Shown here: in pieces, positions 3,487 to 60,858 of the stretch
Numbering within the stretch: position 1 is the first letter of the stretch
Layout: each line of letters starts with the position of its first letter
From: Candidatus Babelota bacterium
Lineage (GTDB): Bacteria; Babelota; Babeliae; Babelales; Vermiphilaceae
Assembly: GCA_049325595.1 (NCBI GenBank)
Contig: JBMOLF010000015.1
Span: 96,001-160,000, forward strand
Direction of reading: 5' to 3'
Length of the DNA: 64,000 bases
Made by a program: the position numbers and the translations under genes
Notes under the pieces: generated by a model
The model's database searches: none
What the model saw: the letters and a program-made list of their open reading frames with translations, nothing else
What the model was told of the DNA's origin: nothing

Positions 3487-4143
3487 ATGAAAAAACAAAC
3501 AATATTGTTATTAATAGGTTTATCTTTGATAAATTCTATTGGTGCAAGTCATGAATCATCTGATATAAAAAATGATTGGCTTCCACCACTAAAAACCAAA
3601 TTTGAAGAGCTATCTCAAGGTTGTAATCCGTATGAACGACTCTGTTTTACCCCAGAAAAGATTAGAGATTTAGAATTTGTTTTTAAAACTTCTCCTCGAC
3701 GGGCACAAAATGTTGTTGAACAATTAAAAAATAAGAGCGAATCGCAATTTACTCTTTTCTTTGGTCGTAGTGGAACCGGCAAAACTGATATGGCGCAAGC
3801 TATAGCTTATAAAATGATGAAAGAAGGATGGTCTACTCATTTTATTCCAAGCATGTATTTAGTAACAACCAGTGATGCTCGAACCTTAGAAAACTTAAAA
3901 AAGCAACTTGAATACATTACTACTCATAATAATAAAGTACTCATTATAATTGATGATATAGATGGATTATTTGATAGTTGTTCTGATAGCAAACTATTAG
4001 TTGAATATTTTAATCATTTTCTTGATGTTAATCAGAATAATCCTAATATACATGTTATTGCTACCCTATCAGAGCAAGGTAGATTACCTCAAAAACTTGA
4101 ACAAAAAATTGGTCACCGCAGAATAAGATTTAATTCTTTTTAA
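3487..4143 (+). CDS. AAA+ ATPase with N-terminal signal peptide
   Basis: Walker A GRSGTGKT, Walker B IIIDDID; MKK+hydrophobic N-terminus. Confidence 0.8.
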   Translation: MKKQTILLLIGLSLINSIGASHESSDIKNDWLPPLKTKFEELSQGCNPYERLCFTPEKIRDLEFVFKTSPRRAQNVVEQLKNKSESQFTLFFGRSGTGKTDMAQAIAYKMMKEGWSTHFIPSMYLVTTSDARTLENLKKQLEYITTHNNKVLIIIDDIDGLFDSCSDSKLLVEYFNHFLDVNQNNPNIHVIATLSEQGRLPQKLEQKIGHRRIRFNSF

Positions 4144-5023: not shown

Positions 5024-5238
5024 AAAGATATCCTTTGTATAATTTCACCGATAAACAAGTATAACTTTTTTAAAAAAAACAGGAATTTAATATAGTATTT
5101 TTAATTGAGAGAAATGCTATAGGAAATTAAGAGGCTTATCTTAGCCTGCTCAAGTAATTCTCAATGGCATATTTTTAACAAATATATCTAAAAATGGTTT
5201 ATATTAGTTTTGACTATAATATACGGGAGTTTGCGCTT

Positions 5239-5988
5239 ATGAACCCAACTAAATTATTGTATATGGATGATTTTAACCAACTGTATTGCACGGCCCGCGT
5301 TGAAAGCGTTTTTTCAGAAAATGGCAAAGACATCGTTATTCTTGATCAGACCGTGTTTTATCCACAGGGTGGTGGTCAACCATACGACAAAGGTATTATT
5401 AAATCTAATAATGGCGAATTTGTTGTTGAAGAAGTCCGATTTGGAGAAGGCATGGTAAAACATATTGGCTTTTTTAGACACGGTATGTTTCCCGCATTTG
5501 GCAAGGGGAGGTTTATGCCAGGTGAAATAGTTGAATGTATTGTAGAGCAGGATCGTCGTGTACTTAATACGCGCTTGCATTCTGCTGGTCATTTGATTGA
5601 TTTAGCAGTACAAGAATTAAATTTACCGTGGGTGCCAGCAAAAGGATTCCATTTTCCTGAGGGGCCGTATGTTGAGTATGTAGTGGAATCTACTAACTTT
5701 GATAAAGAAAAAACAAAAGAGGACATTGAGGTTATTTGTAATCGATTAATTAATGAAAATATGCAAACTTCACTCCTCTTTATGAATAAAGAAGATATGA
5801 AATCGGTGTGCAAAAATGTTCCGGCTTTTATTCCTGAGAATAAGCCAGCGCGCGTTGTGATGTATGGCAAAGTTGGTATTCCCTGTGGTGGCACTCATGT
5901 AAAAAATAGTGCTGATATAAAACATATGGGCATACGAAAAATTAAAGTTGAAGGTAATCATGTTAAAGTGGCTTATGAGATAGCCTGA
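5239..5988 (+). CDS. Alanyl-tRNA editing protein (AlaX)
   Basis: LDQTVFYPQGGGQPYD, HSAGH and CGGTH zinc motifs. Confidence 0.9.
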   Translation: MNPTKLLYMDDFNQLYCTARVESVFSENGKDIVILDQTVFYPQGGGQPYDKGIIKSNNGEFVVEEVRFGEGMVKHIGFFRHGMFPAFGKGRFMPGEIVECIVEQDRRVLNTRLHSAGHLIDLAVQELNLPWVPAKGFHFPEGPYVEYVVESTNFDKEKTKEDIEVICNRLINENMQTSLLFMNKEDMKSVCKNVPAFIPENKPARVVMYGKVGIPCGGTHVKNSADIKHMGIRKIKVEGNHVKVAYEIA

Positions 5989-5997
5989 AGGAAATTA

Positions 5998-6375
5998 ATG
6001 CTTAAAAAAATAATTGTCGTTTTGATAGCGCTCTATAGTGGCACCTATGCAATGGATAATACTATTGAACCCGCAATTGCTGCCCGTGCTCATTGGATAG
6101 GAAATGAAATTGGTTTTGTAATTTTTAGATCAATTATGAATGCTCATGGTCAATCAAAAGGAATACTAAGCGACACAGATAAAAAGCCTTTAGCAGAATT
6201 CGATGATACAACGCAAACAGTAACAACTTATTTTTTACACAATAATAATCAACAGAAGTTTATATTAGAGCAGGATAAATTTATTACCTTTTTAAATGAT
6301 GAAAATCTACTGGAAAAAGCAAAAGCGTATAAAAGATTGCAACGTAATCTTTCGATTAAGTGTACTATTCTTTAA
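5998..6375 (+). CDS. Secreted hypothetical protein with C-terminal CaaX (CTIL)
   Basis: Signal peptide, ARAHWIGNE family motif, ends KCTIL. Confidence 0.75.
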   Translation: MLKKIIVVLIALYSGTYAMDNTIEPAIAARAHWIGNEIGFVIFRSIMNAHGQSKGILSDTDKKPLAEFDDTTQTVTTYFLHNNNQQKFILEQDKFITFLNDENLLEKAKAYKRLQRNLSIKCTIL

Positions 6376-6414
6376 ATAAAAAAATTATTTTATGTAAATT
6401 TAATAAGGAGTTTT

Positions 6415-6816
6415 ATGAAAAGATTTTTACTTACTCTTTTAATGGCAGTTCCTCTTTGCGCAATGGAACAAGAGTTGACTGAACATGAGATTAGCCAAGA
6501 TGATTTAATCGAAGCTCGTATACGTTGGGCGGGTTCTGAATCAAGAATTCGTCAACTTATGTTTGAAGCAAAAAATTATGCTAAAGAAGTACCCTGCCAA
6601 TATATATGTCAAGGCAAAGGGCATATAGCTGATTTTGATGGAAAAAACCAAACAGTGATAACTTATATTGCTAAAGATGATAAACAAACGAGTATCGTAC
6701 AAAGCTATGATGATTTTATTGCTTTTATAAATAATCAAGAATTATATGAGAAAGCGCGCGAAAAATATCTTCAATTGCATCCGCCAGTAAACCGTAAGCG
6801 GTGTGCAATTTTATAA
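6415..6816 (+). CDS. Secreted hypothetical protein with C-terminal CaaX (CAIL), paralogue of 5998
   Basis: AAGGAG RBS, signal peptide, ARIRWAGSE motif, ends RKRCAIL. Confidence 0.8.
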   Translation: MKRFLLTLLMAVPLCAMEQELTEHEISQDDLIEARIRWAGSESRIRQLMFEAKNYAKEVPCQYICQGKGHIADFDGKNQTVITYIAKDDKQTSIVQSYDDFIAFINNQELYEKAREKYLQLHPPVNRKRCAIL

Positions 6817-6875
6817 GTAATTTAAGATTGTATTTTTAAATAAATGTGCCATACTAGTTGATTATGGAGGTTATT

Positions 6876-8036
6876 ATGGCACAATTATTTTATTCATTTA
6901 TTCTTATTTTTTTATGCATTACTTGTCCAATTAATGCTATGTTTACAGTAGCACGACGAATAGTGCCTTTGATAGCTATTAAATCTGCCCAATCATTACA
7001 GAAAAATTCAATTTTTATTCAAAAAAATACCAAAAATTACAAGCCATTATTTAAAACTGTTCAAGCTGAACAAAATATACCAATGACACAAAATCGCTTG
7101 TACAGTTGGTTTAGTTGGACAAAAACTGATGATCGAAGCAAAAAGGCTGAAGAAAATATTAAAAACCTATTAAAAAATTCACGCAATACATTGCTCAAAA
7201 CCAGTGATACTACTTTTGATGAATTCTTAAAAAACGTTGCTACTATTAATTATCAAAGTGATAAATTGGCTTCTCAAGAACTTGTATTTGAAATTATCAA
7301 AGCTACTGGCTACCAATCTAATAGCATTATAGCGCCCTGGTTTTATAACGATAACGATATTGCGCAAGAATTAATAATGGGTGTTGATCGCCAAAAAAGA
7401 TTAGCACAAGTTTTGCTTAATAAAAAAATTAAGCTTGATAGCATCGTAGTAAATAATCAATCATTGTTATTATACGCAATTAGCCAGCTTAATATTGGCT
7501 TTGTTCAGATGATCATGCAAACAGAGTTTAAACACTCAATTGATGTAGCCACTGCAATTTATTATTTAGCGTCTGAATTTGCCAAATTAGAAGATAAAAA
7601 TAATTGGCTGTGTTCTTATAATACCGCTGGCCTCATAACGCGTGATTATCATCGAGCGCGCGCTTATATTATAAAAATGATGGCGCACATTTTACAGCCA
7701 GAGGAATTACCAAAATTTAATTACAACGGGCCTACTTCTGATAACGTTAGAAAAAGTCAAAATAACCAAAAAAATAATACCGAACAAAAAACAGAAAAAA
7801 AGAGATCAACACCATATAGCATAGATGAGTTTTATCAGTTCGCCTTACAGCATGAACGAGTACCAGAATTAATTTTAGGCATAGAAGCATTAGCAAATCA
7901 GCAAGAAATTAAAAATGCCTATAAAGCATTGATAAGCAAATACCATCCCGATAAATACTTGGATGATGAAAGTAGGCGAAAAGCGACAATAATTACTCAA
8001 ATTATTATCAATGCATACAAACATAAATGTTCATAA
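6876..8036 (+). CDS. Secreted protein with C-terminal J (DnaJ) domain
   Basis: GGAGG RBS; ILGI...EIKNAYKALISKYHPDK J-domain with HPD; signal peptide. Confidence 0.8.
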   Translation: MAQLFYSFILIFLCITCPINAMFTVARRIVPLIAIKSAQSLQKNSIFIQKNTKNYKPLFKTVQAEQNIPMTQNRLYSWFSWTKTDDRSKKAEENIKNLLKNSRNTLLKTSDTTFDEFLKNVATINYQSDKLASQELVFEIIKATGYQSNSIIAPWFYNDNDIAQELIMGVDRQKRLAQVLLNKKIKLDSIVVNNQSLLLYAISQLNIGFVQMIMQTEFKHSIDVATAIYYLASEFAKLEDKNNWLCSYNTAGLITRDYHRARAYIIKMMAHILQPEELPKFNYNGPTSDNVRKSQNNQKNNTEQKTEKKRSTPYSIDEFYQFALQHERVPELILGIEALANQQEIKNAYKALISKYHPDKYLDDESRRKATIITQIIINAYKHKCS

Positions 8037-8211
8037 TTGTACATACCCCTGAAATTATTTAATAAAGACATAAATCGGCAAATTACATGCTTAACTTAGT
8101 CTTGCAATTAAAATTTTTATAGAGTAGTAAAATGAGTAAAGTGGTTTAATAGCTAAACTCATTGGACATTGCCCAATCAATCTTTAGTGTATATCTAAAA
8201 AAGGAGTGAGT

Positions 8212-8586
8212 ATGAAAAGATTATGGATTGTTTTTGTAATTGTTGCCAATTCTTACGCAATGGAAACTGAATTAGAATATACCCCCAATCAGATTCAATT
8301 GATTACTGCGCGTTTAAGATGGTCTGGCAATGAAGATTTATTTAAGCTTACCAAGCAAGAAGAAAATTGTTTTATCAACTCGCGGATAGATAATGAACAA
8401 CTTGCTTATCTAGATAATAATGCAAAATTTATTACTACTTATTTTAAATATAATGGTAAAACAAAAACAGTTACCCACACGCGTGAAGAACTTAAAAAAT
8501 TTCTTACCGATCGCCAATTGCTCGCCGAAGTTGCCAAATGTAAAACCACTAAAAAGAATCTTGGACGGTTGTGTACTATTCAATAA
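8212..8586 (+). CDS. Secreted hypothetical protein with C-terminal CaaX (CTIQ), paralogue of 5998/6415
   Basis: AAGGAG RBS, signal peptide, ARLRWSGNE motif, ends RLCTIQ. Confidence 0.8.
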   Translation: MKRLWIVFVIVANSYAMETELEYTPNQIQLITARLRWSGNEDLFKLTKQEENCFINSRIDNEQLAYLDNNAKFITTYFKYNGKTKTVTHTREELKKFLTDRQLLAEVAKCKTTKKNLGRLCTIQ

Positions 8587-8756
8587 TATTTAAATTTATA
8601 AATAGGTTAATATTTTTTCTTAATCTATCAGTTGCATAAGGTATTAATGAGAGGTGGCAGAACATTGTCATTCAGAATCATTTTTCTATCTATTTAAAAA
8701 TAAAAAAACAGCTACAATTACTGTTTGGTTCTGAATAATAAGACAGGAGAAGCTAC

Positions 8757-9374
8757 ATGTCAATTTTATATGTTGGTACCAAATCTGCATCACGACGTAT
8801 GTTATTAGATCAAGCACAAATTCCTTATACGCTTGTGCAACAAGAAGCAGATGAATCAGTATGTAAATTAAGCGATAATTTACAAGAACGAGTTACTGCA
8901 ATTGCATTACAAAAAATGGATCACGTAATTTTGCCAAAAGGTAAAGATAGCGAACAATGTTTTGTTCTTACCGCTGATACGTTGTCGCAAGATAAAACTG
9001 GCGCCATTTCTGGTAAGCCAGAAAATAGACAAGAAGCAATTTCCATGATTAAAGCAGCACGAGATGGTATGTACACGGGTACTGCATTTTGTTTGGATCG
9101 CAAAATATGGAAAGAAAATAGTTGGCATATTGATGAACGTGTCGTTCAATTTGTAGCCGCTGAATATATTTTTAATATTCCTGATGAATGGATTGAGATA
9201 TATTTTGAAAAATCAATTGCACTCAATGCATCAGGTGCCATTGCAATAGAAGATTTTGGTATGCAATTTTTAAAGATAATCAATGGATCTTATTCAGGTT
9301 TAGTTGGTTTGCCTATGTATGAGCTACGCGAGGCACTTGAGGAATTGAATTTCTTTTCGTTTGTAAAAAAATAA
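8757..9374 (+). CDS. maf: Maf family nucleoside triphosphate pyrophosphatase
   Basis: KSASRRMLL, ADT, GKP, GSYSGLVGLP motifs. Confidence 0.9.
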   Translation: MSILYVGTKSASRRMLLDQAQIPYTLVQQEADESVCKLSDNLQERVTAIALQKMDHVILPKGKDSEQCFVLTADTLSQDKTGAISGKPENRQEAISMIKAARDGMYTGTAFCLDRKIWKENSWHIDERVVQFVAAEYIFNIPDEWIEIYFEKSIALNASGAIAIEDFGMQFLKIINGSYSGLVGLPMYELREALEELNFFSFVKK

Positions 9375-9424
9375 TTTTTGCTATAATGATTCACCAAATA
9401 ATTTTAAAAACTTATGGAGAATTC

Positions 9425-9910
9425 ATGAAAAAAATTTTATTTGTGATGTTCATTATGATTAATAGCATTAGTGCGCATGAAGTCCAGCAAGTAAAAGCTT
9501 CGGGAATAACCTATCCTTTATCCTGCCATGCCGTGCAACGTATGAGAGAAAGGGGAATTAATGCAATTAATTTAAGCAATTTGTTAGCGCATGGTAAATC
9601 GTATGAAAATACCGAAAATACCCAATTAGTTGTTAATACTAATAATGGTTATGGTGCAGTAGTTTCCATAAATGATCGGGTAATAATAACAGTAATGATC
9701 AACATATTTGAAGATAGACTGCAACGAAAATTGCAAAAAGTTAAGCATGCAAATCCAACTATATTAAAGCAAAAAGATATAAAATATTTAAAACACAGTG
9801 CGCTGATTCCATCTACTGAAAAAAGCATGAGAAAAAAACTAAAAAAAAGCACGGATTTATTTTTTGATGATGAAAATTATCAAAAAAAGTTAAGAAACAA
9901 AAGAAAATAA
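9425..9910 (+). CDS. Secreted DUF4258-like protein with basic tail
   Basis: LSCHAVQRMRERGI and VIITV motifs; signal peptide; Lys-rich C-terminus. Confidence 0.6.
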   Translation: MKKILFVMFIMINSISAHEVQQVKASGITYPLSCHAVQRMRERGINAINLSNLLAHGKSYENTENTQLVVNTNNGYGAVVSINDRVIITVMINIFEDRLQRKLQKVKHANPTILKQKDIKYLKHSALIPSTEKSMRKKLKKSTDLFFDDENYQKKLRNKRK

Positions 9911-9926: not shown

Positions 9927-11378
9927 TTAATATACATCATTTTTAACTAAGAACGTTGAAAACTGCCAGATATCATCAGTAGCTGGCATTTTTTTATCAA
10001 AAACTAAGAATTGATTAGGTCTATCAACGGGTTTCCAATTAACTGGTCGTGAAATAAATTCTCCCAGATAAGGTTTTGCAATAGTTAATATTTGTGTGTG
10101 ATCGATATCGTCAGGTAAACAAAAACCTTGATTAGGATTAGTAATAGCATAGACAGCAGCGGCAACTATACTAATAGCAACTTGCAAGGTCGTGCTGTTT
10201 TGCCCGGGTATTAATTTTCGTGTTTGTTCGATATCAAGTACACTACCAATCCACCACGAATGGTAGGCATGTCCCATTAATAAACAGCCAATTTCGTCAG
10301 CGCCGCTTGTAATTTCATCATACATAATACGTTTTTTTGGCTGAAGCACAAAATCACGCATGCGAAATTCATACAAAGAACTCAAAGCTGAGTCGTTAAG
10401 ACAATAGGCATAATATACGGTAGGGCGATAAATTGCGCGACCTTGTTCCCACACGGTTAATCGCTCTGAAATGCCGTATGCTTCTCCATGGCGAATAACC
10501 ATGCCAATAATAGGACCAGAAGGTACCCAGGAGCGGACAAGAGTATTCATACCCATTGATGATAATAATATTTGATTTTGTGGGCCATGATTATGAGTGT
10601 GTGCTCCTTTAGGCAACATTTTTTCGTGAGTGCCCCAGCCAAGTTCTGCAGGAGCCATTCCTTCTTCGATAAGACCTTCTATGCTCCAGGTATTTACAAA
10701 TTCATTAACTTGTTTTGGCTTGTTAATAATTTGTGTATCGCGCTCAGAGATATGGATAACTTTGGTTTGAGTGAGCAATGATAATCGAGGAAAATGATTA
10801 TTTGATAATGCTGCTTCTAACTCTATTTTTTTGTCTGCTTTGTCATCTTTTAATAATTGCTGTGCTAAGTCAATTAATGCTTGTTTGGTAAAGTGCGACA
10901 CAAGACCTGGGTTAGCACCATGATCAACAATAGCCGTTGCGCTTGGTTTAGTCCATGTTGAAATCATCTTTTCTATTTTCATATGGCGATAGTACAAAGT
11001 AAGATTCTCAGGTGGTGTATTTTCTACATCTTGATAGGGTTCCCATTCTTCTATAGAACTGTTGATATACAAAACATTATGTTCATAGCACCATTGCAAA
11101 AGTGAAATGGTATCAACGTTCCATGAAAGATCAATAAACAGATCACCAGCTTTTAGATGCTGTGATAATATTTCTTGATAATTGTCTTTAGTAAGTTTGT
11201 TAATAACGTAAGTAATTCCCTGTTCAAGATAATCTTTAAGATAAGATCTATTATCTACAAAATCCATTATCGTAATGTGCTTAGGATCAATGTTAATGTG
11301 CTTAAGTAAAAGAGGTAACGTACAACGAGCCACAGCCCCGAAACCAAGCATAAAAATAGAGCGATCAAATCTTATCAT
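9927..11378 (-). CDS. hss: Homospermidine synthase
   Basis: Rossmann GFGAVA, HGANPGLVSHF, FVNTWSIEG, PAELGWGTHE, YRPTVYYAY motifs. Confidence 0.9.
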   Translation of the reverse strand: MIRFDRSIFMLGFGAVARCTLPLLLKHINIDPKHITIMDFVDNRSYLKDYLEQGITYVINKLTKDNYQEILSQHLKAGDLFIDLSWNVDTISLLQWCYEHNVLYINSSIEEWEPYQDVENTPPENLTLYYRHMKIEKMISTWTKPSATAIVDHGANPGLVSHFTKQALIDLAQQLLKDDKADKKIELEAALSNNHFPRLSLLTQTKVIHISERDTQIINKPKQVNEFVNTWSIEGLIEEGMAPAELGWGTHEKMLPKGAHTHNHGPQNQILLSSMGMNTLVRSWVPSGPIIGMVIRHGEAYGISERLTVWEQGRAIYRPTVYYAYCLNDSALSSLYEFRMRDFVLQPKKRIMYDEITSGADEIGCLLMGHAYHSWWIGSVLDIEQTRKLIPGQNSTTLQVAISIVAAAVYAITNPNQGFCLPDDIDHTQILTIAKPYLGEFISRPVNWKPVDRPNQFLVFDKKMPATDDIWQFSTFLVKNDVY

Positions 11379-11477
11379 TAGAACCTAACAATAATTAATT
11401 AAGTTATATGTGATAAGATAAAAAGTGGGTTGAGTAAAAAGCAATCAAAAAATATTAAGATATTTTTCAAATAAAAA

Positions 11478-11502
11478 AGAGGCCGCTTTTAAACGGCCTC
11501 TT
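11478..11502 (-). terminator. Intrinsic terminator
   Basis: agaggccg-cttttaaa-cggcctct with T-run on minus strand. Confidence 0.7.
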
Positions 11503-11519
11503 GGTCTAATAATAATTGC

Positions 11520-11990
11520 TTAATGCATTATTTGTTTTTTTGTAGGTTTCCAGCGTTTGAGAAGCTCTTCAAACAATAATTGTTGGGCATTTTGATCAGG
11601 TTTTTGTTCTGCTTTTGTCGTAGCTTTTTCTACACTAAAACGAACCGTTTCTTGGTCGCATGCAGTAGCATCAATATGATCAATAGCGGGCATCAAATTT
11701 TGTTTGATTGCTTTTTTTGCAGTATCTTCATTTAAAGCAACGAGCAAGAGTGATTCCATTAAGGTGAAAAATTCTAAAATGCTGTGGTGCACTTCTTCAA
11801 GCATATCAGACTCGGTGTTTACCTTACTGTATGCTTCAATCTTTTTAATCTCTTCTTTGAGCCCGTTATCAAGTGCTTTGGACACCAGTTTTTTTAGCTT
11901 ATCAGTATCATACTGTGAGAGCCAACGGAGAAGACATAAAAGTTCATACGAAATAGTAAATTGGTTTGCGTTATTATTGTCATTCATCAT
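11520..11990 (-). CDS. Hypothetical protein
   Basis: 156-aa ORF co-directional with hspR-htpX, with RBS-like AAAGGG upstream. Confidence 0.7.
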   Translation of the reverse strand: MMNDNNNANQFTISYELLCLLRWLSQYDTDKLKKLVSKALDNGLKEEIKKIEAYSKVNTESDMLEEVHHSILEFFTLMESLLLVALNEDTAKKAIKQNLMPAIDHIDATACDQETVRFSVEKATTKAEQKPDQNAQQLLFEELLKRWKPTKKQIMH

Positions 11991-12041
11991 ACCGTGATTC
12001 CCTTTGGTTGAGGTGTCGGCACTATATTGTTTTGTTAATTA

Positions 12042-12893
12042 TTATCTTTTTTGCGCCATTAAACGTAAACGTTCAATACGTTTGCGTAATGGTGGGTGGG
12101 TTGAAAACCACTCGCTTATTGTGGACATTCTAAATGGATGCACAATAAAAAGAGACGATGTTGTCGCTTCAGTTGTTGTTCCACGTGGAGCAACATGAGT
12201 GTGTAATTTTTCAAGAGCGCTTGCTAATGCCATAGGATCGTGGCAAGCATGAGCTCCAGTTTCATCGGCCATATATTCGCGTGAGCGAGAGATGGCAAGT
12301 TGAAGCAATGAAGCAATAAACGGTGTAATAATAGCAAGCACTAAAAGACTTAATGGATTATTGCGTTGTCTGCCGTCTTGCGATTGGCCGCCCCACATAG
12401 CAGAATATTGGAGCATTTGCGCCAAATAACTAATAGTTGTTGCAATTACTACTGCTATGGTAGAAATTAAGGTATCTCTATTTTTTACATGCGACAATTC
12501 ATGAGCTACTACGCCCCGTAATTCACGATCATCAAGAATTTGCAAAATACTACTTGTAAAGGCAACTGATGCATTGATTGGATTTCTGCCCGTAGCAAAT
12601 GCATTTGCAGATGGATTATCAATAAGCCATAATTTAGGCATAGGAATGTTCATACTTTTTGATAATTCGCTTACCATTTGATAAATTGCAGCATATCGTT
12701 GTTGATCTAATGGGCGAGCATTGTACATGCGTAATACAATTTTGTCTGAGAAAAAGTAGGCATATCCATTCATGAGTAATGAAAAGATAAAGGCAATCAT
12801 TAATCCTTGTGAACCCCCAATTGCTCTACCTACCAATAATAGTAATCCACTAAGCGTACCAAGTAAGATTACCGTTTTAAGATTATTATTCAT
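12042..12893 (-). CDS. htpX: Zinc metalloprotease HtpX (M48)
   Basis: NAFATGR, HELSH, SRSREYMAD, FSTHPP. Confidence 0.95.
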   Translation of the reverse strand: MNNNLKTVILLGTLSGLLLLVGRAIGGSQGLMIAFIFSLLMNGYAYFFSDKIVLRMYNARPLDQQRYAAIYQMVSELSKSMNIPMPKLWLIDNPSANAFATGRNPINASVAFTSSILQILDDRELRGVVAHELSHVKNRDTLISTIAVVIATTISYLAQMLQYSAMWGGQSQDGRQRNNPLSLLVLAIITPFIASLLQLAISRSREYMADETGAHACHDPMALASALEKLHTHVAPRGTTTEATTSSLFIVHPFRMSTISEWFSTHPPLRKRIERLRLMAQKR

Positions 12894-15382: not shown

Positions 15383-17044
15383 TTAGTGCAATTGAACAGG
15401 TAATATTCCTTGAGCTTTTTTAGTTCGTTTTAAAATGGCAGCAACTTCTTGTTGTGCTATTGGATCAGCTTCATATGCAATTAATGCTCGTGTTGCCTTA
15501 TCTAAATTATTTAAAAAGTAGGGTGAACCAAAAAGCGCAATAATGGTAGTTGTTTTTTCTTGTAATGCGTTAATGAGTTTTAAGCTATTTTCAGATACCC
15601 CAAATTGTTTGTGTGGATCGCGTGTCATGCCAAATAATGCTACTATTGCAGGTTTTGCAGCATCAATTTTTTCAATAATTGTTTCAATCTCATCAGTGCT
15701 TGGTTTTTTTGAGAGCTTAAACAAATTTTTTGATTCGATAGGTAGCGATTGAATAAATGCATCTTTTGGTGCACTACCAATTTGTATAACTGTTGCATCA
15801 TCTAAGGTGAATTCTTCTTGATTAAAATTATATGCGGTTATAGATTGCTCAAAAACTTTTTGTTTAAGAGTCAAAGCAGTGTCGCTGTTAATAATTTGAT
15901 CATAGTTTTCAAGCGCATGTGTTTGCCAATTGCGTTGTGAAAAAATCCATTCTTTTGCTTTGAGTATGCGCAATACATGAGCGTCAAGTTCTTGCTCTGA
16001 AATAGTTCCGTGGTCAATTGCATGTTCGATGCATGCAACAGCACGAGAAACATCGGTAGGACACAATAAAATATCATTGCCTGCTTGCAAAGCTTTTAAT
16101 TCTAATTCACCTGGTTTGTAATGGTCTGAGACGGCACGCATCATTAATGCATCGGTGATAATTAATCCATTAAATGCCATTTCATTGCGCAGTAAATCAG
16201 TAATCATTTTGGGTGAAAGACTTGAAGTAATGTTTTCATCTAGCGCAGGGATGCGCAAATGGGCTGTCATAATTGATTTGACTTGTTCAGTGATCATTGC
16301 TTTAAATGGTGCAAGCTCTATTTCGTTTAATCGCTCACGTGAGTGATTAATGGTTGGTAATTCATGGTGTGAATCGAGATCAGTGTCACCATGACCCGGA
16401 AAATGTTTTGCACAGGCAATAATACCGGCGTTTTGTAATCCTTCAGTATACGCAATTGCTTTTTCTATAACGGTATTGGGTTGTGAACCAAACGATCGAA
16501 AGCCAATAACCGGATTATTAGGATTATTATTAACATCAACCACCGGTGCAAAATTAATATTTACACCAAGTGCCTGACAATGCTTGCCTGTTTCATAAGC
16601 AACATCATAAATGAGTGTTGGGTTTTGTACGGCACCAAGTGACATTGCGCAGGGGAAACGTAAGCTGCCGTTTTGATTTCTACTTCCGGTACCTGCTTCG
16701 TAATCCTGTGCGATGAATAATGGTACTTTACTTGCATCTTGAAACTTATTCGTGTACGATACTTGCTCCTTAAGTTCGCCTGTTCCTAAAAAAATTACGC
16801 CGCCGATATTATATTTTTGAATCAAATGTTTTACATAGGTTTTATCAACGCCAAGGTTTTTTTGCGTATACCACCATTCATTGCGCGTATCTTCGGGGTT
16901 AGTTACCGCAGTTACGATAAACAATTGACCTATTTTTTCTTGCAGCGACATTTTCTTGAGTGTTTGCTCTGCCCATGATGATTGGCTTGCATCAAGAGCG
17001 TTATTGAGTAGGGTAAACATTAGTATAAAAAATTTTTTATACAT
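15383..17044 (-). CDS. Glycoside hydrolase family 3 (beta-N-acetylglucosaminidase, NagZ-like), secreted
   Basis: KHFPGHGDTDLDSH motif, ITDALMM nucleophile, signal peptide. Confidence 0.92.
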   Translation of the reverse strand: MYKKFFILMFTLLNNALDASQSSWAEQTLKKMSLQEKIGQLFIVTAVTNPEDTRNEWWYTQKNLGVDKTYVKHLIQKYNIGGVIFLGTGELKEQVSYTNKFQDASKVPLFIAQDYEAGTGSRNQNGSLRFPCAMSLGAVQNPTLIYDVAYETGKHCQALGVNINFAPVVDVNNNPNNPVIGFRSFGSQPNTVIEKAIAYTEGLQNAGIIACAKHFPGHGDTDLDSHHELPTINHSRERLNEIELAPFKAMITEQVKSIMTAHLRIPALDENITSSLSPKMITDLLRNEMAFNGLIITDALMMRAVSDHYKPGELELKALQAGNDILLCPTDVSRAVACIEHAIDHGTISEQELDAHVLRILKAKEWIFSQRNWQTHALENYDQIINSDTALTLKQKVFEQSITAYNFNQEEFTLDDATVIQIGSAPKDAFIQSLPIESKNLFKLSKKPSTDEIETIIEKIDAAKPAIVALFGMTRDPHKQFGVSENSLKLINALQEKTTTIIALFGSPYFLNNLDKATRALIAYEADPIAQQEVAAILKRTKKAQGILPVQLH

Positions 17045-17118
17045 ACTTGGATCCTTTTTTAAAATTGTTTTAATAAGTCATTGCACAGTGTAGCGAACCA
17101 CTAACATAGGTCAATAAA

Positions 17119-17143
17119 AAAGGCCGGACAAATGTCCGGCCTC
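17119..17143 (-). terminator. Intrinsic terminator
   Basis: aggccggaca-aa-tgtccggcct with T-run on minus strand. Confidence 0.7.
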
Positions 17144-17160
17144 TTAAAAAATTTAGTTAA

Positions 17161-18726
17161 TTAGCAGAAAGTTGCTTGGATTATTTTTTGATAATATTCA
17201 GCGCCAACTTTTTTAGTACGTGGTAATTGTGGGTCATTAAAATCTACTTTGAATAATCCATACCGTTTAGAATAAGTTCCCCATTCGTAATTATCTAACA
17301 ATGACCAATAAAAATAACCACGCACATCATGGCCTGCTGAAATAGCACGTGCGAGTGCATATAAATAGCGCTGTAAAAATAACTCACGATGAGATTCGTT
17401 ATCAGTACCAATACCATTTTCAGTTACATAAATTGGTATATTTAATGGCTTTGCAACGTTGTTTGAAATTTCTTCTATCGCACGATAGAGACCTTCACCA
17501 TAAATAGTGTAGCGTTCATTATTTGCCGGAATTTCATTTTTCTCATCGCGCAAGATTGTTTTGCCTTTCATGTAGCCATGGCAATAATAATTAAGGCCGA
17601 TGAAATCAAGGCATTTACCACCATTTTTGATGTACTCATTTACCGGAAATTTCTTATTAACTTTAGTTGGTGTGTATACATGCAATAAGCCGGTTTTTAA
17701 ATAGGTGTAGAATGTACTGTTTACCAACTGATTACCAAAGTAACACAATAAATGATCACCTGGGTGATATAAGCGCCATGGATCTAATTGATAAATATTT
17801 TTTAATACACCAATGCGTGAAGTGTCACCGCCCGGTAATGCTTTTAAAGTGCGATACACTGCAACGTGTGCTTCAAATAAATTATGCATTACGTCGGCCA
17901 TTAATTCCCATTGATCTTTTTTAGCTGGAGGTTTTAAGCCTTGCGTCCAACCCGTTAATGCATATGATTCAGGGGCATTAAAGGTAAGCCATAAGTGAAC
18001 ATAAGAATGTAAGCGTTCAAATACTGTTTTTGCAAAAAATACAAAATGTTCTATGTTTTCTGCTTTTTCCCATCCACCTAAATCGCCAAACCAAATTGGA
18101 TCGGTGTAATGATACAGCGTGATAACGGGTTTAATACCTTTTGCAACCAGTTGTTTGCACACGTCTTCATAATGATCTAAGGCCGTGTAATCGATAACTC
18201 CTGGTTGAGGAACTATTTTGCTCCATTCAACTGAAAATCGATACCCGTTTAATCCAAAATCAGCCATGAGTGCAATGTCTTCAGGATATTTATTCCAGTG
18301 ATCACAGGCAATACCAGCATCAACTATTTTTCCTTGTTGTTCAGGGCTATTAGCATAGGCATACCAATTGTTGTTTGTGCAACCACCTTCAACTTGGTGC
18401 GCAGAAGTACCGCTTCCCCATAACCACATATCATTTTGCGCAGCTAATTTTTGAGCATGATGTTTAAAAAATGTTCCGATAGGTTGATTGTTAATGCGAT
18501 CGGTATGTATAGCTGCCCAATTCCAAGAAATAGTATTTAAATGGTTAGTGACTGCCTTGTATGCATATAAACTTCCTATAGCAGTAGCAGGTAATACTAC
18601 TGCAGCAACTGGATTTTCTTTTGCTTGCTGCCAGGCATTATTAGTAAGGTGAGTAACATATTCCATACCCTGTGCTGGTTGGTGTATAACACCTAATGCA
18701 ACAAGCGATAGTAATAATTTTTTCAT
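17161..18726 (-). CDS. Glycoside hydrolase family 1 protein, acid/base Glu replaced (TFNAP)
   Basis: WGSGTSAHQVEG, YRFSVEWSKI, YVTENG, WSLLDNYEW; signal peptide. Confidence 0.92.
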   Translation of the reverse strand: MKKLLLSLVALGVIHQPAQGMEYVTHLTNNAWQQAKENPVAAVVLPATAIGSLYAYKAVTNHLNTISWNWAAIHTDRINNQPIGTFFKHHAQKLAAQNDMWLWGSGTSAHQVEGGCTNNNWYAYANSPEQQGKIVDAGIACDHWNKYPEDIALMADFGLNGYRFSVEWSKIVPQPGVIDYTALDHYEDVCKQLVAKGIKPVITLYHYTDPIWFGDLGGWEKAENIEHFVFFAKTVFERLHSYVHLWLTFNAPESYALTGWTQGLKPPAKKDQWELMADVMHNLFEAHVAVYRTLKALPGGDTSRIGVLKNIYQLDPWRLYHPGDHLLCYFGNQLVNSTFYTYLKTGLLHVYTPTKVNKKFPVNEYIKNGGKCLDFIGLNYYCHGYMKGKTILRDEKNEIPANNERYTIYGEGLYRAIEEISNNVAKPLNIPIYVTENGIGTDNESHRELFLQRYLYALARAISAGHDVRGYFYWSLLDNYEWGTYSKRYGLFKVDFNDPQLPRTKKVGAEYYQKIIQATFC

Positions 18727-18734
18727 CACATAGT

Positions 18735-20216
18735 TCATGCAATAATCTCCTTGTTAAATTTATTTATCACATCAATATAGTATTGTGCGCCGGGTTTGAG
18801 CGAGCGTTTTTGTGTAGCATAATCAATTGCACATAACCCATATTTTTTACTATAGGTTCCCCACTCATAGTTGTCCATGAGCGACCATACAATATATCCA
18901 CGTACATCGTGACCTTCATTTATTGCTTGTGAAAGGGCATATAGATATCGTTTAAAAAACAATTCACGATCAGCTTCACTCGAGGTGCTAATACCATTTT
19001 CGGTAACATAAATAGGAATATTCAGCGGTTTTGCTAGATGAGTTGATATATCAACAATAGCGCGATACAAGCCTTCAGGATATATAGTATAAATAGGATT
19101 ATCGGTTATTGTTTCGCCTGGATAGGTAGTAACATCTCGACTTTGCATTAAGCCATGTGAGTAATAATTAAGACCGATAAAATCAAGACTTTGAGGGGCC
19201 AGTTTGTTGCTGTATTTTAATTTTGCCGTAAAAGGAACGCTTATTTTAACTTCGCCCTTTGTAAAGAAATTGTATACATTTTCATCAAACAATGAACGCG
19301 CTGCTTTGCAACCCATACCGTCAAACCATCCAGAACCTGGTTCTACTTGATAGATATTGTGAAGTATACCTATGTGTGATGATGTGCCACCTTCTAATGT
19401 TTTTAATGCATGATAAGTTTGTACGTGTGCTTCTAATACATTTTTTAATACTTCTTGTGCCCGTTGCATACTCGGCTTGCCACCAGGGTAGGCCATCTGT
19501 TTATAATAACAGCGCGCTACATAACTGGTTGGTGAATTAAAGGTAAGCCACAAGTGAACATACGATTGCAAGCGTTCAAATACGATAGCTGCAAACTTAA
19601 CAAAATGAGAAATATTTTCTTGATTCTCAAAGCCACCTTTTAATGCAAACCATTTAGGGCTCGTGTAATGATGCAGGGTGATAACTGGTTTTATGCCAGC
19701 TTTAATAAGTGCTTTGCAAACATCCTCGTAATGATCAAGTACTGCTTGATTGATTTTTCCTTGCTCTGGTTCAATTTTGCTCCATTCAACAGAAAATCTA
19801 AATGTATTAATGCCTAGCGATTGCATGAGTGCAATATCTTCTTCATACCGATTCCAATGATCGCAAGCTGTCCCAGTTTTTTCTTCAACGTTGCCTGTTT
19901 CTTCCCATAGGCACCAATCATTGTTAGTGCAATTTCCTTCTACTTGATGAGCAGAGGTACCGACACCCCACAAAAAGTGCTCAGGGAATTGTAGATTTTG
20001 TTCATTGATTAATGACCAATCCCAATATAAAGGAGTGCTTGTTTTGATAGGCGTTTCTTGATACACATATGATGGAAATTCTTTTTCAGCAACAACAGCC
20101 ACTGATGCTTTAGATTGTGTTGATTCTTGATGTTGTTTGACTGTTTTTTTATTGCAAGCAGGGATAAGTACTAATCCAGCTGCAATGGCAAGAATAGCTA
20201 TGCTAAGACGTGACAT
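18735..20216 (-). CDS. Glycoside hydrolase family 1 protein, probable lipoprotein, acid/base Glu replaced (TFNSP)
   Basis: WGVGTSAHQVEG, FRFSVEWSKI, YVTENG, WSLMDNYEW; lipobox-like LIPAC. Confidence 0.92.
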   Translation of the reverse strand: MSRLSIAILAIAAGLVLIPACNKKTVKQHQESTQSKASVAVVAEKEFPSYVYQETPIKTSTPLYWDWSLINEQNLQFPEHFLWGVGTSAHQVEGNCTNNDWCLWEETGNVEEKTGTACDHWNRYEEDIALMQSLGINTFRFSVEWSKIEPEQGKINQAVLDHYEDVCKALIKAGIKPVITLHHYTSPKWFALKGGFENQENISHFVKFAAIVFERLQSYVHLWLTFNSPTSYVARCYYKQMAYPGGKPSMQRAQEVLKNVLEAHVQTYHALKTLEGGTSSHIGILHNIYQVEPGSGWFDGMGCKAARSLFDENVYNFFTKGEVKISVPFTAKLKYSNKLAPQSLDFIGLNYYSHGLMQSRDVTTYPGETITDNPIYTIYPEGLYRAIVDISTHLAKPLNIPIYVTENGISTSSEADRELFFKRYLYALSQAINEGHDVRGYIVWSLMDNYEWGTYSKKYGLCAIDYATQKRSLKPGAQYYIDVINKFNKEIIA

Positions 20217-20414
20217 AATAACCTCTATTTTTATAACCTTCATTTACTTATAGTTTAATACAACATAATCAAATCGTCAAAATTGATCCAAATAGTAAGT
20301 TTTTATTCGATAAAAGCTAAAAAAAAGTAAGTTGTCATCTCTGGGGCTGTTGTTATACTAGGTGCCGGACGCTTAAATGAAAGATTAAACATGAATATAT
20401 GAATTTTTATTGGC

Positions 20415-59643: not shown

Positions 59644-59823
59644 GAAAGCCTCATTAAATGATGTTTTTCAGATCTTTAAAGTATTAATAATATTTTAGCA
59701 ATCATACCCATGAAAGTTAATGATTGTGTCTATGTTAACAATGCATGATTAGTTAACATAGACATGGTAACTCGCTATAATAAATACAGAGTCATTTTTA
59801 ATACATTTTGTTCTGAGTTTCTA

Positions 59824-60858
59824 ATGAAAAAATATCTAATAATTTTATTATGCCTGATAACATTTTCCAAAACTCATACTATGGATAGAAGAGCATCTAT
59901 TCATGATAAAGCTCTTGCAATATATGGCGATTTTTTTCTTGATTTATGCAATGGGATAGAAGAAGAAGATACATCAATAATTAAAAGAAGCTTGTCAAAG
60001 GTAAATCCTAATGAGCTTATAAAATGTAAATTTAGTCCCACGGTTAAAATGGAGGCTTCTAAAAAATATATTGTTTTGGGCCATCCTGACATGATCACTA
60101 TTCCTAATGGTGTAAAAGTTTACATACGCCCAATTCATTTATGCATAAAAGATAAAAAATTACGTTCATTAGAATGTCTTTTGGAATCCGGCGCCCGCTT
60201 AGAAGTAGATCAAGAATTAGGCTCGAGCCTTTCTTTGAATAAAGAATCTTTGGATTATTATAACCGTTTGCTGGCTATATTTACCAAACACAAATTCAAA
60301 ATAAACTCCAGGGATAAAGACGGAAAAAGTTTGTTACACTTTGCTACAGCCAGTGCCAATAATAACCTTATAATAGCATTACTTAATTACAAAAATATTG
60401 ATGTGAATGCCTATGACACAGTGGGACGTACACCGCTTCATTATTTAATTTTAGGCAAAGGTCAAGATGTGCAGGCAAGAATTTCTTGCTTAAAAACATT
60501 AATGGCATCCCGCGAAATAGACCCAAACAAAGTAGATATAGCACATCGCATGTCACCTTTGACCATGGGTATAATAAGTGATCCTGATCTTGCTAAAATA
60601 TTAATTACTTATGATCGAGTTGATCCAAATGCAACAGTAATGAATTCGTATACTCCACTTATGCAAGCAATTAAAAGCGATGAAGCAGAAATTGTATCTT
60701 TAATATTAAAAAGAGATATCAATGTGCTTAAAGAGGATAGCAAGGGACATACTGCATTTGATTATGCAAAAGATAAACCGGAACTTTTAGCGCTGCTTAA
60801 CCAGCATATTAGTAACACAAATACTGGAAAAGCATCTTTTTCTAATTCTCAAAAATAA
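59824..60858 (+). CDS. Secreted ankyrin repeat protein
   Basis: GKSLLHFA, GRTPLHY, YTPLMQAI, GHTAFDYA. Confidence 0.9.
   Translation: MKKYLIILLCLITFSKTHTMDRRASIHDKALAIYGDFFLDLCNGIEEEDTSIIKRSLSKVNPNELIKCKFSPTVKMEASKKYIVLGHPDMITIPNGVKVYIRPIHLCIKDKKLRSLECLLESGARLEVDQELGSSLSLNKESLDYYNRLLAIFTKHKFKINSRDKDGKSLLHFATASANNNLIIALLNYKNIDVNAYDTVGRTPLHYLILGKGQDVQARISCLKTLMASREIDPNKVDIAHRMSPLTMGIISDPDLAKILITYDRVDPNATVMNSYTPLMQAIKSDEAEIVSLILKRDINVLKEDSKGHTAFDYAKDKPELLALLNQHISNTNTGKASFSNSQK

Follow-up and report, generated by a model that had tools for sequence, protein, structure and literature searches.

The window analysed here, a 64,000-nucleotide stretch of contig JBMOLF010000015.1 of Candidatus Babelota bacterium (assembly GCA_049325595.1, contig positions 96,001 to 160,000), carries three small plus-strand genes between positions 5998 and 8586, the products of which each begin with a predicted Sec signal peptide and end in a Cys-aliphatic-aliphatic-X (CaaX) tetrapeptide, the type of C-terminus that is lipidated by eukaryotic prenyltransferases. 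By the textbook rule, Leu at position X directs geranylgeranylation, and Gln, Met or Ser at this position directs farnesylation. The source genome (labelled G000) is 1.29 Mb in size with 34% G+C and a completeness of 95%, and belongs to the Dependentiae (Babeliales). The three genes, named paralogues 1 to 3, have the following features (aa, amino acids):

5998..6375, plus strand: paralogue 1, 125 aa, C-terminus CTIL; identical to family protein P0004
5998..6051, plus strand: predicted Sec signal peptide of paralogue 1, residues 1-18, ...GTYA / MD, read from the sequence
6361..6372, plus strand: CaaX codons of paralogue 1, C122-T-I-L125
6415..6816, plus strand: paralogue 2, 133 aa, C-terminus CAIL
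6415-6462, plus strand: predicted signal peptide of paralogue 2, residues 1-16
6802-6813, plus strand: CaaX codons of paralogue 2, CAIL
8212..8586, plus strand: paralogue 3, 124 aa from the ATG, C-terminus CTIQ; equals family protein P0001
8212-8259, plus strand: predicted signal peptide of paralogue 3, residues 1-16
8539..8541, plus strand: second Cys (C110) of paralogue 3, 11 residues before the CaaX Cys
8572-8583, plus strand: CaaX codons of paralogue 3, CTIQ

Pairwise BLASTP comparisons between the paralogues gave 29% identity over 129 aa (E 2e-14) and 32% over 105 aa (E 3e-12), indicating that the three open reading frames (ORFs) are real paralogues, as a preliminary description of this stretch had proposed. 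The features which that description had ascribed to the ORFs at 5998, 6415 and 8212, namely a signal-peptide-like N-terminus, common motifs, a basic tail and the endings CTIL, CAIL and CTIQ, were all recovered. In the three-sequence alignment, the motifs read A-R-x-[HR]-W-x-G-[NS]-E, A-x-[FL]-D and [TI]-T-Y, while A18 and M19 (paralogue 1 numbering), the Cys at position -4 and the Ile at position -2 are invariant. All three N-termini consist of a basic n-region, an h-region of 10-14 residues and x-[YC]-A, followed by Met-Asp/Glu. A bacterial lipobox (L-[AS]-[GA]-C) was also looked for in this alignment, and no conserved Cys was found at the signal-peptide end, the mature N-termini being Met-Asp or Met-Glu. 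An AGGA/GGAG-type ribosome-binding site precedes the first ATG in every case, the Shine-Dalgarno (SD)-like motifs being gaaggaaatta, taaggag and aaaggag in paralogues 1, 2 and 3, respectively. The ORF of paralogue 3 opens at a GTG at 8206, its first possible start, and the ATG at 8212 is the likely start because homologues begin with MKR or MKK. In paralogue 1, the 15 residues preceding the CaaX Cys include six K/R and no D/E, and the mature part contains a single Cys. No copy beyond these three was found in the genome, either by tblastn or with a family hidden Markov model (HMM) run over 1312 non-overlapping ORFs, a crude set that accounts for 90% of it (next best E 0.041).

Searches of Pfam and NCBIfam gave no match for any of the three proteins; together with a literature search that found no paper joining Dependentiae with CaaX boxes or prenylation, this bore out the earlier claim of an undescribed family. 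A word-indexed search returned eight close clusters, and a profile search of 1.84 billion representatives returned 45 clusters at E <= 1e-3, including 11 at E <= 1e-10. A hydrophobic N-terminus is present in 48 of 50 family proteins and a Cys at -4 in 15 of the 50. When counted by representative cluster, Cys at -4 occurs in 10/45, compared to 25/1312 ORFs (1.9%) genome-wide (binomial 1e-8, kinship ignored), and all but one of the 17 family rows with this Cys have I, V or L at position a2 of the box. The preliminary description had expected homologues to keep the Cys at -4, which holds for the close clusters (8/8) but not for the family at large, since the box is carried by about 17 of about 55 distinct members and missing from about 38.

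The family is unevenly distributed within the order, being found in 7/261 species genomes and 6/145 genera (E <= 1e-5). In a genome of the same genus (G001), two tandem family copies ending in CTIL and CSIQ are syntenic with the window, and Maf and DUF4258-like genes adjoin the CaaX genes in both G001 and the window. A genome from another family of the order (G039) has one solid member ending in CILF (E 5e-19 against an HMM built without it), beside which lie three weakly related tandem signal-peptide genes ending in CIIN, CLIS and CNLY. The latter (members b, c and d) scored E 0.001-0.06 against an HMM excluding them, and are probable divergent paralogues that we left uncounted. This array of four small signal-peptide genes lies on the minus strand (L088 6317-8231; G039:C1, about 824316-826230), and its second and third genes are related to each other (E 1.7e-11).

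The family members in genomes G256, G073, G063 and G138 have no CaaX box. In the family as a whole, two members end in a MYND zinc finger (PF01753, 2.8e-9 and 2.6e-6), an essentially eukaryotic, cytosolic domain, three carry a hydrophobic, anchor-like tail, many others end in basic residues, and two are arrays of 4-5 copies of the core domain. Across the family, the core thus stays the same, and the C-terminus acts as an interchangeable addressing module. In G073 (C5, about 115100-118000, minus strand; L139/L143), the adjacent genes for P0010 and P0014 encode five and four tandem cores, respectively, with one signal peptide each; a single-domain member adjoins them, and none of these three genes has a CaaX box. 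A three-sequence profile search of genome contigs for related loci gave 98 pattern matches, of which none was confirmed, and a match in genome G008 (E 0.002) was rejected as a member, its ORF being a signal-peptide protein that by eye resembles a glycosyltransferase.

Within subfamilies, the box is retained over long distances. CTIL is unchanged in paralogue 1 orthologues at 90, 54-56 and 37% identity, CAIL is retained by P0002, a strain variant of paralogue 2, and relatives of paralogue 3 at 52, 46 and 42% identity end in CTIQ, CSVQ and CSIQ, respectively, all keeping the Gln. Thus, the claim that the endings are conserved despite low identity stood within subfamilies down to 37-42% identity, with the last residue (L or Q) included, and failed across the whole domain family. 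The second Cys (equivalent to C110) is kept in 5/5 CxxQ-type members, with Tyr at this position in the CTIL-type members; as a speculation, it might be palmitoylated in the CxxQ subfamily.

To place these endings on a phylogeny, a maximum-likelihood (ML) tree of 50 rows was built with the last six residues stripped, comprising 48 of the 50 proteins (two multi-domain ones omitted) and one copy each from G001 and G039, with the G063 and G138 members and G039 members b-d omitted. By parsimony, the 17 CaaX rows require six changes on this tree, at least three of which are forced by well-supported branches, and separate CaaX lineages end in CSIV, CTIM, CLIL and CILF. A deep split in the tree separates the CAIL copy of the window from its CTIL and CTIQ copies, so that the three genes are a family by paralogy, as described earlier, but did not arise together as a recent triplet. 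The 15 residues before the Cys contain on average 4.3 K/R and 0.9 D/E in CaaX rows and 2.1 of each in non-CaaX members, where 11 of 15 CaaX rows belong to one clade. Outside the family, the box is retained between G000 and G001 in two unrelated CaaX proteins, one ending in CLVI and CIII, respectively (36% identity), and the other in CTIL in both genomes (53%). For two other CaaX proteins, C9:59385 and C7:82316, the queries used found no orthologues in the 261 and 80 genomes searched, respectively. Judged from these sequence comparisons, the box is under selection and not merely inherited.

We then counted CaaX endings genome-wide. C-termini matching C[AVLIMFT][AVLIMF]X occur in 10/1312 ORFs of G000, compared to 2, 2, 4, 0 and 3 in shifted registers, and 8 of these 10 ORFs have a hydrophobic N-terminus: the three paralogues, four proteins ending in CIIL (twice), KKKKKRRNKICLVI and CTIL, and a WD40 propeller ending in CLLM. 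By HMM, the non-family CaaX proteins are unrelated to the three-paralogue family. Of the two strict CaaX ORFs with no hydrophobic N-terminus, one is a doubtful 73-aa ORF and the other is presumably ribosomal protein S8. On contig C1 of G039 (1.42 Mb, 1361 ORFs), strict CaaX endings number 7, versus 1, 1, 4, 2 and 2 in shifted registers, and all seven ORFs have a hydrophobic N-terminus. With the two genomes pooled, 17 strict CaaX endings were observed against 4.2 expected, about a four- to five-fold excess (Poisson 2e-6). The comparison of signal-peptide proteins with other proteins, which the preliminary description had put forward, therefore gave an excess over shifted registers that lies almost only on signal-peptide proteins in two genomes.

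The predicted mature start shared by the paralogues is widespread in the genome. The dipeptide Met-Asp/Glu (M-[DE]) peaks at ORF residues 15-24, with 60 and 41 occurrences per five-residue bin compared to about 10 expected, and 115/1312 ORFs of G000 have an h-region, a small residue at -1 and then Met-Asp/Glu (examples in the window are at 5998-6057, 6415-6468, 8212-8265 and 59764-59850). The -1 residue in this M-[DE] class is A in 44, S in 23, G in 18 and T in 14 cases (99/115). The peak recurs in G039 (40 and 77 per bin), where the class comprises 145/1361 ORFs. The possibility that translation begins internally, at the Met that follows the hydrophobic stretch, was rejected: an SD-like motif precedes the first start in 62/115 class ORFs and the internal Met in 0/115, showing that translation includes the signal peptide. 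The 115-ORF class holds seven of the 10 strict CaaX ORFs, versus 3 among the 1197 ORFs outside it (Fisher 3e-6). Once cut, the class proteins would begin as a cytosolic protein does; avoidance of host N-degron recognition is our guess as to the reason for the Met-Asp/Glu mature start.

A Pfam scan of all 115 class ORFs gave matches for 26, including 16 eukaryote-type repeats (ANK 9, LRR 5, WD40 1 and TPR 1), a single envelope enzyme and three ORFs that the class rule had evidently captured in error. Orphan proteins, too, are abundant in the class. As a control, 115 ORFs were drawn at random from 272 other signal-peptide-like ORFs of the same 39 regions; 39 of these had Pfam matches, with 6 repeats and 12 envelope or housekeeping proteins (penicillin-binding proteins, BamA, TamB, TolC-like and ZnuA).

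Five tandem genes with a Met-Glu signal peptide, each of about 240-250 aa and with a weak ankyrin match, were also seen in G000 (C7:34826-38765; L095 31-3967), and this array is a local effector-like expansion.

A structure prediction of the core, suggested in the preliminary description, yielded a confident model with no clear fold match. For paralogue 1, AlphaFold2 with a 50-row alignment gave a mean predicted local distance difference test score (pLDDT) of 86.4 and a predicted template modelling score (pTM) of 0.73. The core is an alpha/beta domain of about 85 residues, and the modelled topology is alpha-alpha-beta4-alpha-alpha, with the last helix (102-124) predicted to run into the CaaX box. 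Foldseek found no match at E <= 0.001 in the PDB or BFVD, a profile search of the PDB reached a best E of only 0.048, and matches in the ESM Atlas had template modelling (TM) scores of 0.41 or less (query-normalised). With VIA-align, the best of 48,161 chains was 9dcr_A, a type VII chaperone (Z 6.5, 73 aligned residues, root-mean-square deviation 3.3), which is in the noise band; this likeness and that to WWE domains (Z 3.8-4.5) were both rejected, as their Z scores lie within the aligner's noise band.

The DnaK of G000 shares 75-81% identity with metagenome-assembled genomes labelled Babeliales, Babeliaceae or Dependentiae, and none of the other matches listed exceeds 72%. The Dependentiae members studied so far are intracellular in protists, and the cell of the cultured species Chromulinavorax destructans sits in the host cytoplasm, according to the sections available of the paper describing it (PMC6561590). 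The same sections report signal peptides on 44% of the coding sequences and 78% of the ankyrin proteins of C. destructans, name no export system other than Sec and describe vesicles (PMC6561590). In the 95%-complete genome G000, neither PF02517 (Rce1-like/CPBP; control matched in 11/14 genomes) nor PF04140 (isoprenylcysteine methyltransferase, ICMT; control matched in 5/14 genomes) was found, suggesting that any CaaX processing would be the host's; the search for PF00432 (prenyltransferase-beta) was uninformative, its control matching in 0/14 genomes. The markers of type IV (PF03135, VirB4) and type III (PF00771, FHIPEP) secretion were not found in searches whose controls matched in 1 and 4 of 14 genomes, respectively. 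The genome does encode two secretins and two T2SSE (type II secretion-type) ATPases, and a prepilin peptidase turned up in the control Pfam scan. Exit beyond Sec is probably by a secretin-based system or vesicles.

We regard host prenylation of Sec-exported effectors as the best reading of these data and hold it with moderate confidence. Translation would begin at the first ATG, upstream of the hydrophobic stretch, and the product would be exported by Sec and cut by signal peptidase I after x-x-Ala, leaving Met-Asp/Glu as the mature start. The mature protein would then be released through the outer membrane to the cytoplasm of the protist host. There, as the textbook rule predicts, host geranylgeranyltransferase I (GGTase-I) would lipidate CTIL and CAIL and host farnesyltransferase (FTase) would lipidate CTIQ, and host Rce1 and ICMT would process the lipidated end. 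The basic helix would aid anchoring on host membranes, to which, speculatively, palmitate on the second Cys might add in the CxxQ subfamily. The corresponding interpretation in the preliminary description thus survives in part. It withstood each computational check that might have overturned it: the undescribed family, the intracellular lineage, the conservation within subfamilies, the CaaX excess and the missing Rce1 and ICMT genes speak for it. It needs qualifying in that the box is a recurrent tail module and not a trait of the whole family, and in that the three genes are no recent triplet.

Several observations weigh against host prenylation. Cys at -4 alone is barely enriched in G000, with 25/1312 ORFs compared to 12-23 at other tail positions (23 at -5), and an excess appears only with the complete C-a-a-X pattern. 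The ORF calls and signal-peptide classes are crude heuristics, the cleavage sites are predicted, and the enrichment tests count related genes as independent. The repeat-domain excess of the M-[DE] class over the control (16/115 versus 6/115) is modest (Fisher 0.042). Some endings are odd for characterised prenyltransferases, namely CFNP in P0006, an internally duplicated protein from a contig of 979 bp, and CIIN, CLLN and CILY in G039. The many family members with no CaaX box imply that the core works without it. Moreover, a Sec signal peptide alone delivers a protein to the periplasm, so that crossing of the outer membrane or a vacuole membrane is our supposition, and in the abstracts and extracts available, the literature on CaaX effectors does not describe Sec-dependent delivery.

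The last point also favours an alternative in which the proteins stay in the bacterial envelope and are not prenylated, the tail serving as an intermolecular disulfide tether or as a ligand of a periplasmic PDZ protease or chaperone. The C-terminal hydrophobic helix of three relatives, combined with the signal peptide, could equally hold these proteins on the periplasmic side of the inner membrane, PDZ ligands classically end in a hydrophobic tripeptide, and most family members have no CaaX box. However, what is conserved is precisely a terminal C-aliphatic-aliphatic-X preceded by a basic stretch, and its last residue is fixed per subfamily as L or Q, where a C-terminal Gln is not of PDZ type. 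An internal disulfide is impossible in paralogue 1 with its one mature Cys, two relatives are fused to the eukaryotic cytosolic MYND finger, and the signal-peptide class to which the paralogues belong includes ankyrin, LRR and WD40 proteins but hardly any envelope enzymes. We therefore consider retention in the envelope unlikely.

If the proteins do reach the host cytosol, the tail could still be a linear motif that carries no lipid, such as a eukaryotic PDZ-binding [S/T]-x-hydrophobic sequence. The evidence for host targeting applies to this alternative as it does to prenylation, and three of the endings (CTIL, CSIV and CTIM) match the consensus of class I PDZ ligands. The endings CTIQ, CSIQ, CSVQ and CAIL depart from this consensus, PDZ ligands have no need of the Cys at -4 that is invariant here, and the upstream basic stretch is typical of prenylated proteins. 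This makes a docking motif improbable. Least credible, to the point of near dismissal, is that the endings are a chance or compositional by-product of an AT-rich genome, inherited among close paralogues. The weak enrichment of Cys at -4 by itself and the close kinship of 11 of the 15 CaaX rows among the 50 proteins agree with such an origin, but the strict pattern exceeds shifted registers four- to five-fold in two genomes, is concentrated in the M-[DE] class, appears on at least three and most parsimoniously six tree branches, and persists from one species to another in three protein families that are unrelated to each other.

Beyond host prenylation of the three paralogues, we tentatively propose that the Babeliales address roughly a hundred effectors with no injection machine, by combining Met-Asp/Glu signal peptides with modular C-terminal tags. 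These tags would, on the same tentative footing, include CxxL and CxxQ CaaX boxes, a possible palmitoylation Cys, tail anchors and MYND fingers. Within such a scheme, the orphan domain might perhaps be the first family in which host lipidation has evolved repeatedly on Sec-exported bacterial proteins.

If host prenylation is true here, the hijacking of this host modification extends from a few injected effectors of Legionella and Salmonella to the Dependentiae, a little-studied, widespread phylum of protist parasites, and reaches proteins that leave by the general Sec route and not by a type III or type IV machine. Host-targeted effectors could then be sorted from the 44-48% of Dependentiae proteins that have signal peptides by a simple sequence rule, namely a CaaX ending combined with signal-peptide cleavage before Met-Asp/Glu. 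The proteins would also provide small, easily expressed probes of host membranes, and a natural example of paralogues divided between the farnesyl and geranylgeranyl routes.

Several neighbouring genes and other exported proteins were also recorded. One gene separates paralogues 2 and 3:

6858..8036, plus strand: J-domain gene between the paralogues, 392 aa, hydrophobic N-terminus, DnaJ match (1.1e-8) at residues 339-374

Its product is a neighbour and not a family member, and its NCBIfam J-domain matches are all below the cut-offs; the gene is missing between the two family copies at the syntenic site in G001. A second J-domain protein of the same build (C10:599-1765; weak DnaJ match, 0.0024) ends in CSIK. 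Both J-domain products would be exported and could engage the Hsp70 of the host.

Upstream of the paralogues, the gene at 3487-4143 (plus strand) encodes an AAA-type ATPase (Pfam 1.4e-10) whose N-terminus resembles a signal peptide; the class and control scans turned up at least three further AAA proteins of this kind, export being odd for an ATPase. Downstream, the region 8757-9910 (plus strand) contains a Maf-like gene followed by one for a signal-peptide protein with a DUF4258 match (6.2e-5, below the Pfam cut-off). Three consecutive glycoside hydrolases (GH3, GH1 and GH1) with signal-peptide-like N-termini are encoded at 15383-20243 (minus strand), which is unexpected in such a reduced genome. 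Elsewhere in G000, three signal-peptide proteins carry collagen triple-helix repeats (L127:14109-14993, 10869-11735 and 11740-12654, minus strand; Pfam 3e-9 to 2e-8). A promoter and terminator scan of positions 5100-9500 gave 18 promoter-like sites compared to 23.6 expected and 2 terminator-like sites compared to 2.4 expected.

Among known systems, the tails resemble those of eukaryotic polybasic-CaaX proteins (the K-Ras4B type, Rho/Rap GTPases and G-gamma), in which a basic stretch is likewise followed by C-a-a-X. CAIL is the ending of a G-gamma subunit, CNIQ and CVIL are those of the Rap2A/Rap2B pair, and one further G000 protein, outside the three-paralogue family, ends in KKKKKRRNKICLVI. 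Different from these eukaryotic proteins, the paralogues have no GTPase or G-gamma domain, are encoded by bacterial genes and carry an N-terminal signal peptide.

According to the extracts available of the respective papers, the Legionella effector AnkB has a CaaX box modified by host FTase, RCE1 and ICMT and is anchored to host membranes (PMC2916131), other prenylated effectors of Legionella, termed 'Pel', also undergo host prenylation (PMC13081727), and Salmonella SifA and GtgE use a C-terminal CaaX for host prenylation and membrane association (PMC13423502, PMC4534788). AnkB and the Pel proteins share with the paralogues an amoeba-adapted intracellular bacterium as their source and the eukaryotic CaaX ending, but they are Dot/Icm type IV substrates with no Sec signal peptide, whereas the paralogues have a signal peptide and no VirB4 was found in their genome. 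The AnkB core consists of an F-box and ankyrin repeats, and that of the window proteins is an orphan from another phylum, with no domain detected in common, by a comparison of domain make-up and not of the sequences directly. SifA and GtgE have the C-terminal CaaX in common with the paralogues; they are type III-injected proteins with enzymatic or adaptor domains and no signal peptide, and the core found here is unrelated. Closest in lineage are the signal-peptide ankyrin proteins and putative effectors of C. destructans, from the same phylum and with presumed Sec export of host-directed proteins; the available sections of that paper make no mention of CaaX or lipidation (PMC6561590). Supplements aside, no paper combining Dependentiae with prenylation or CaaX was found, and by titles and abstract openings, none of the literature on Dependentiae signal peptides or effectors is about lipidation. 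Host prenylation of injected effectors is thus already known, and what is new here is the phylum, the orphan family and the proposed export route.

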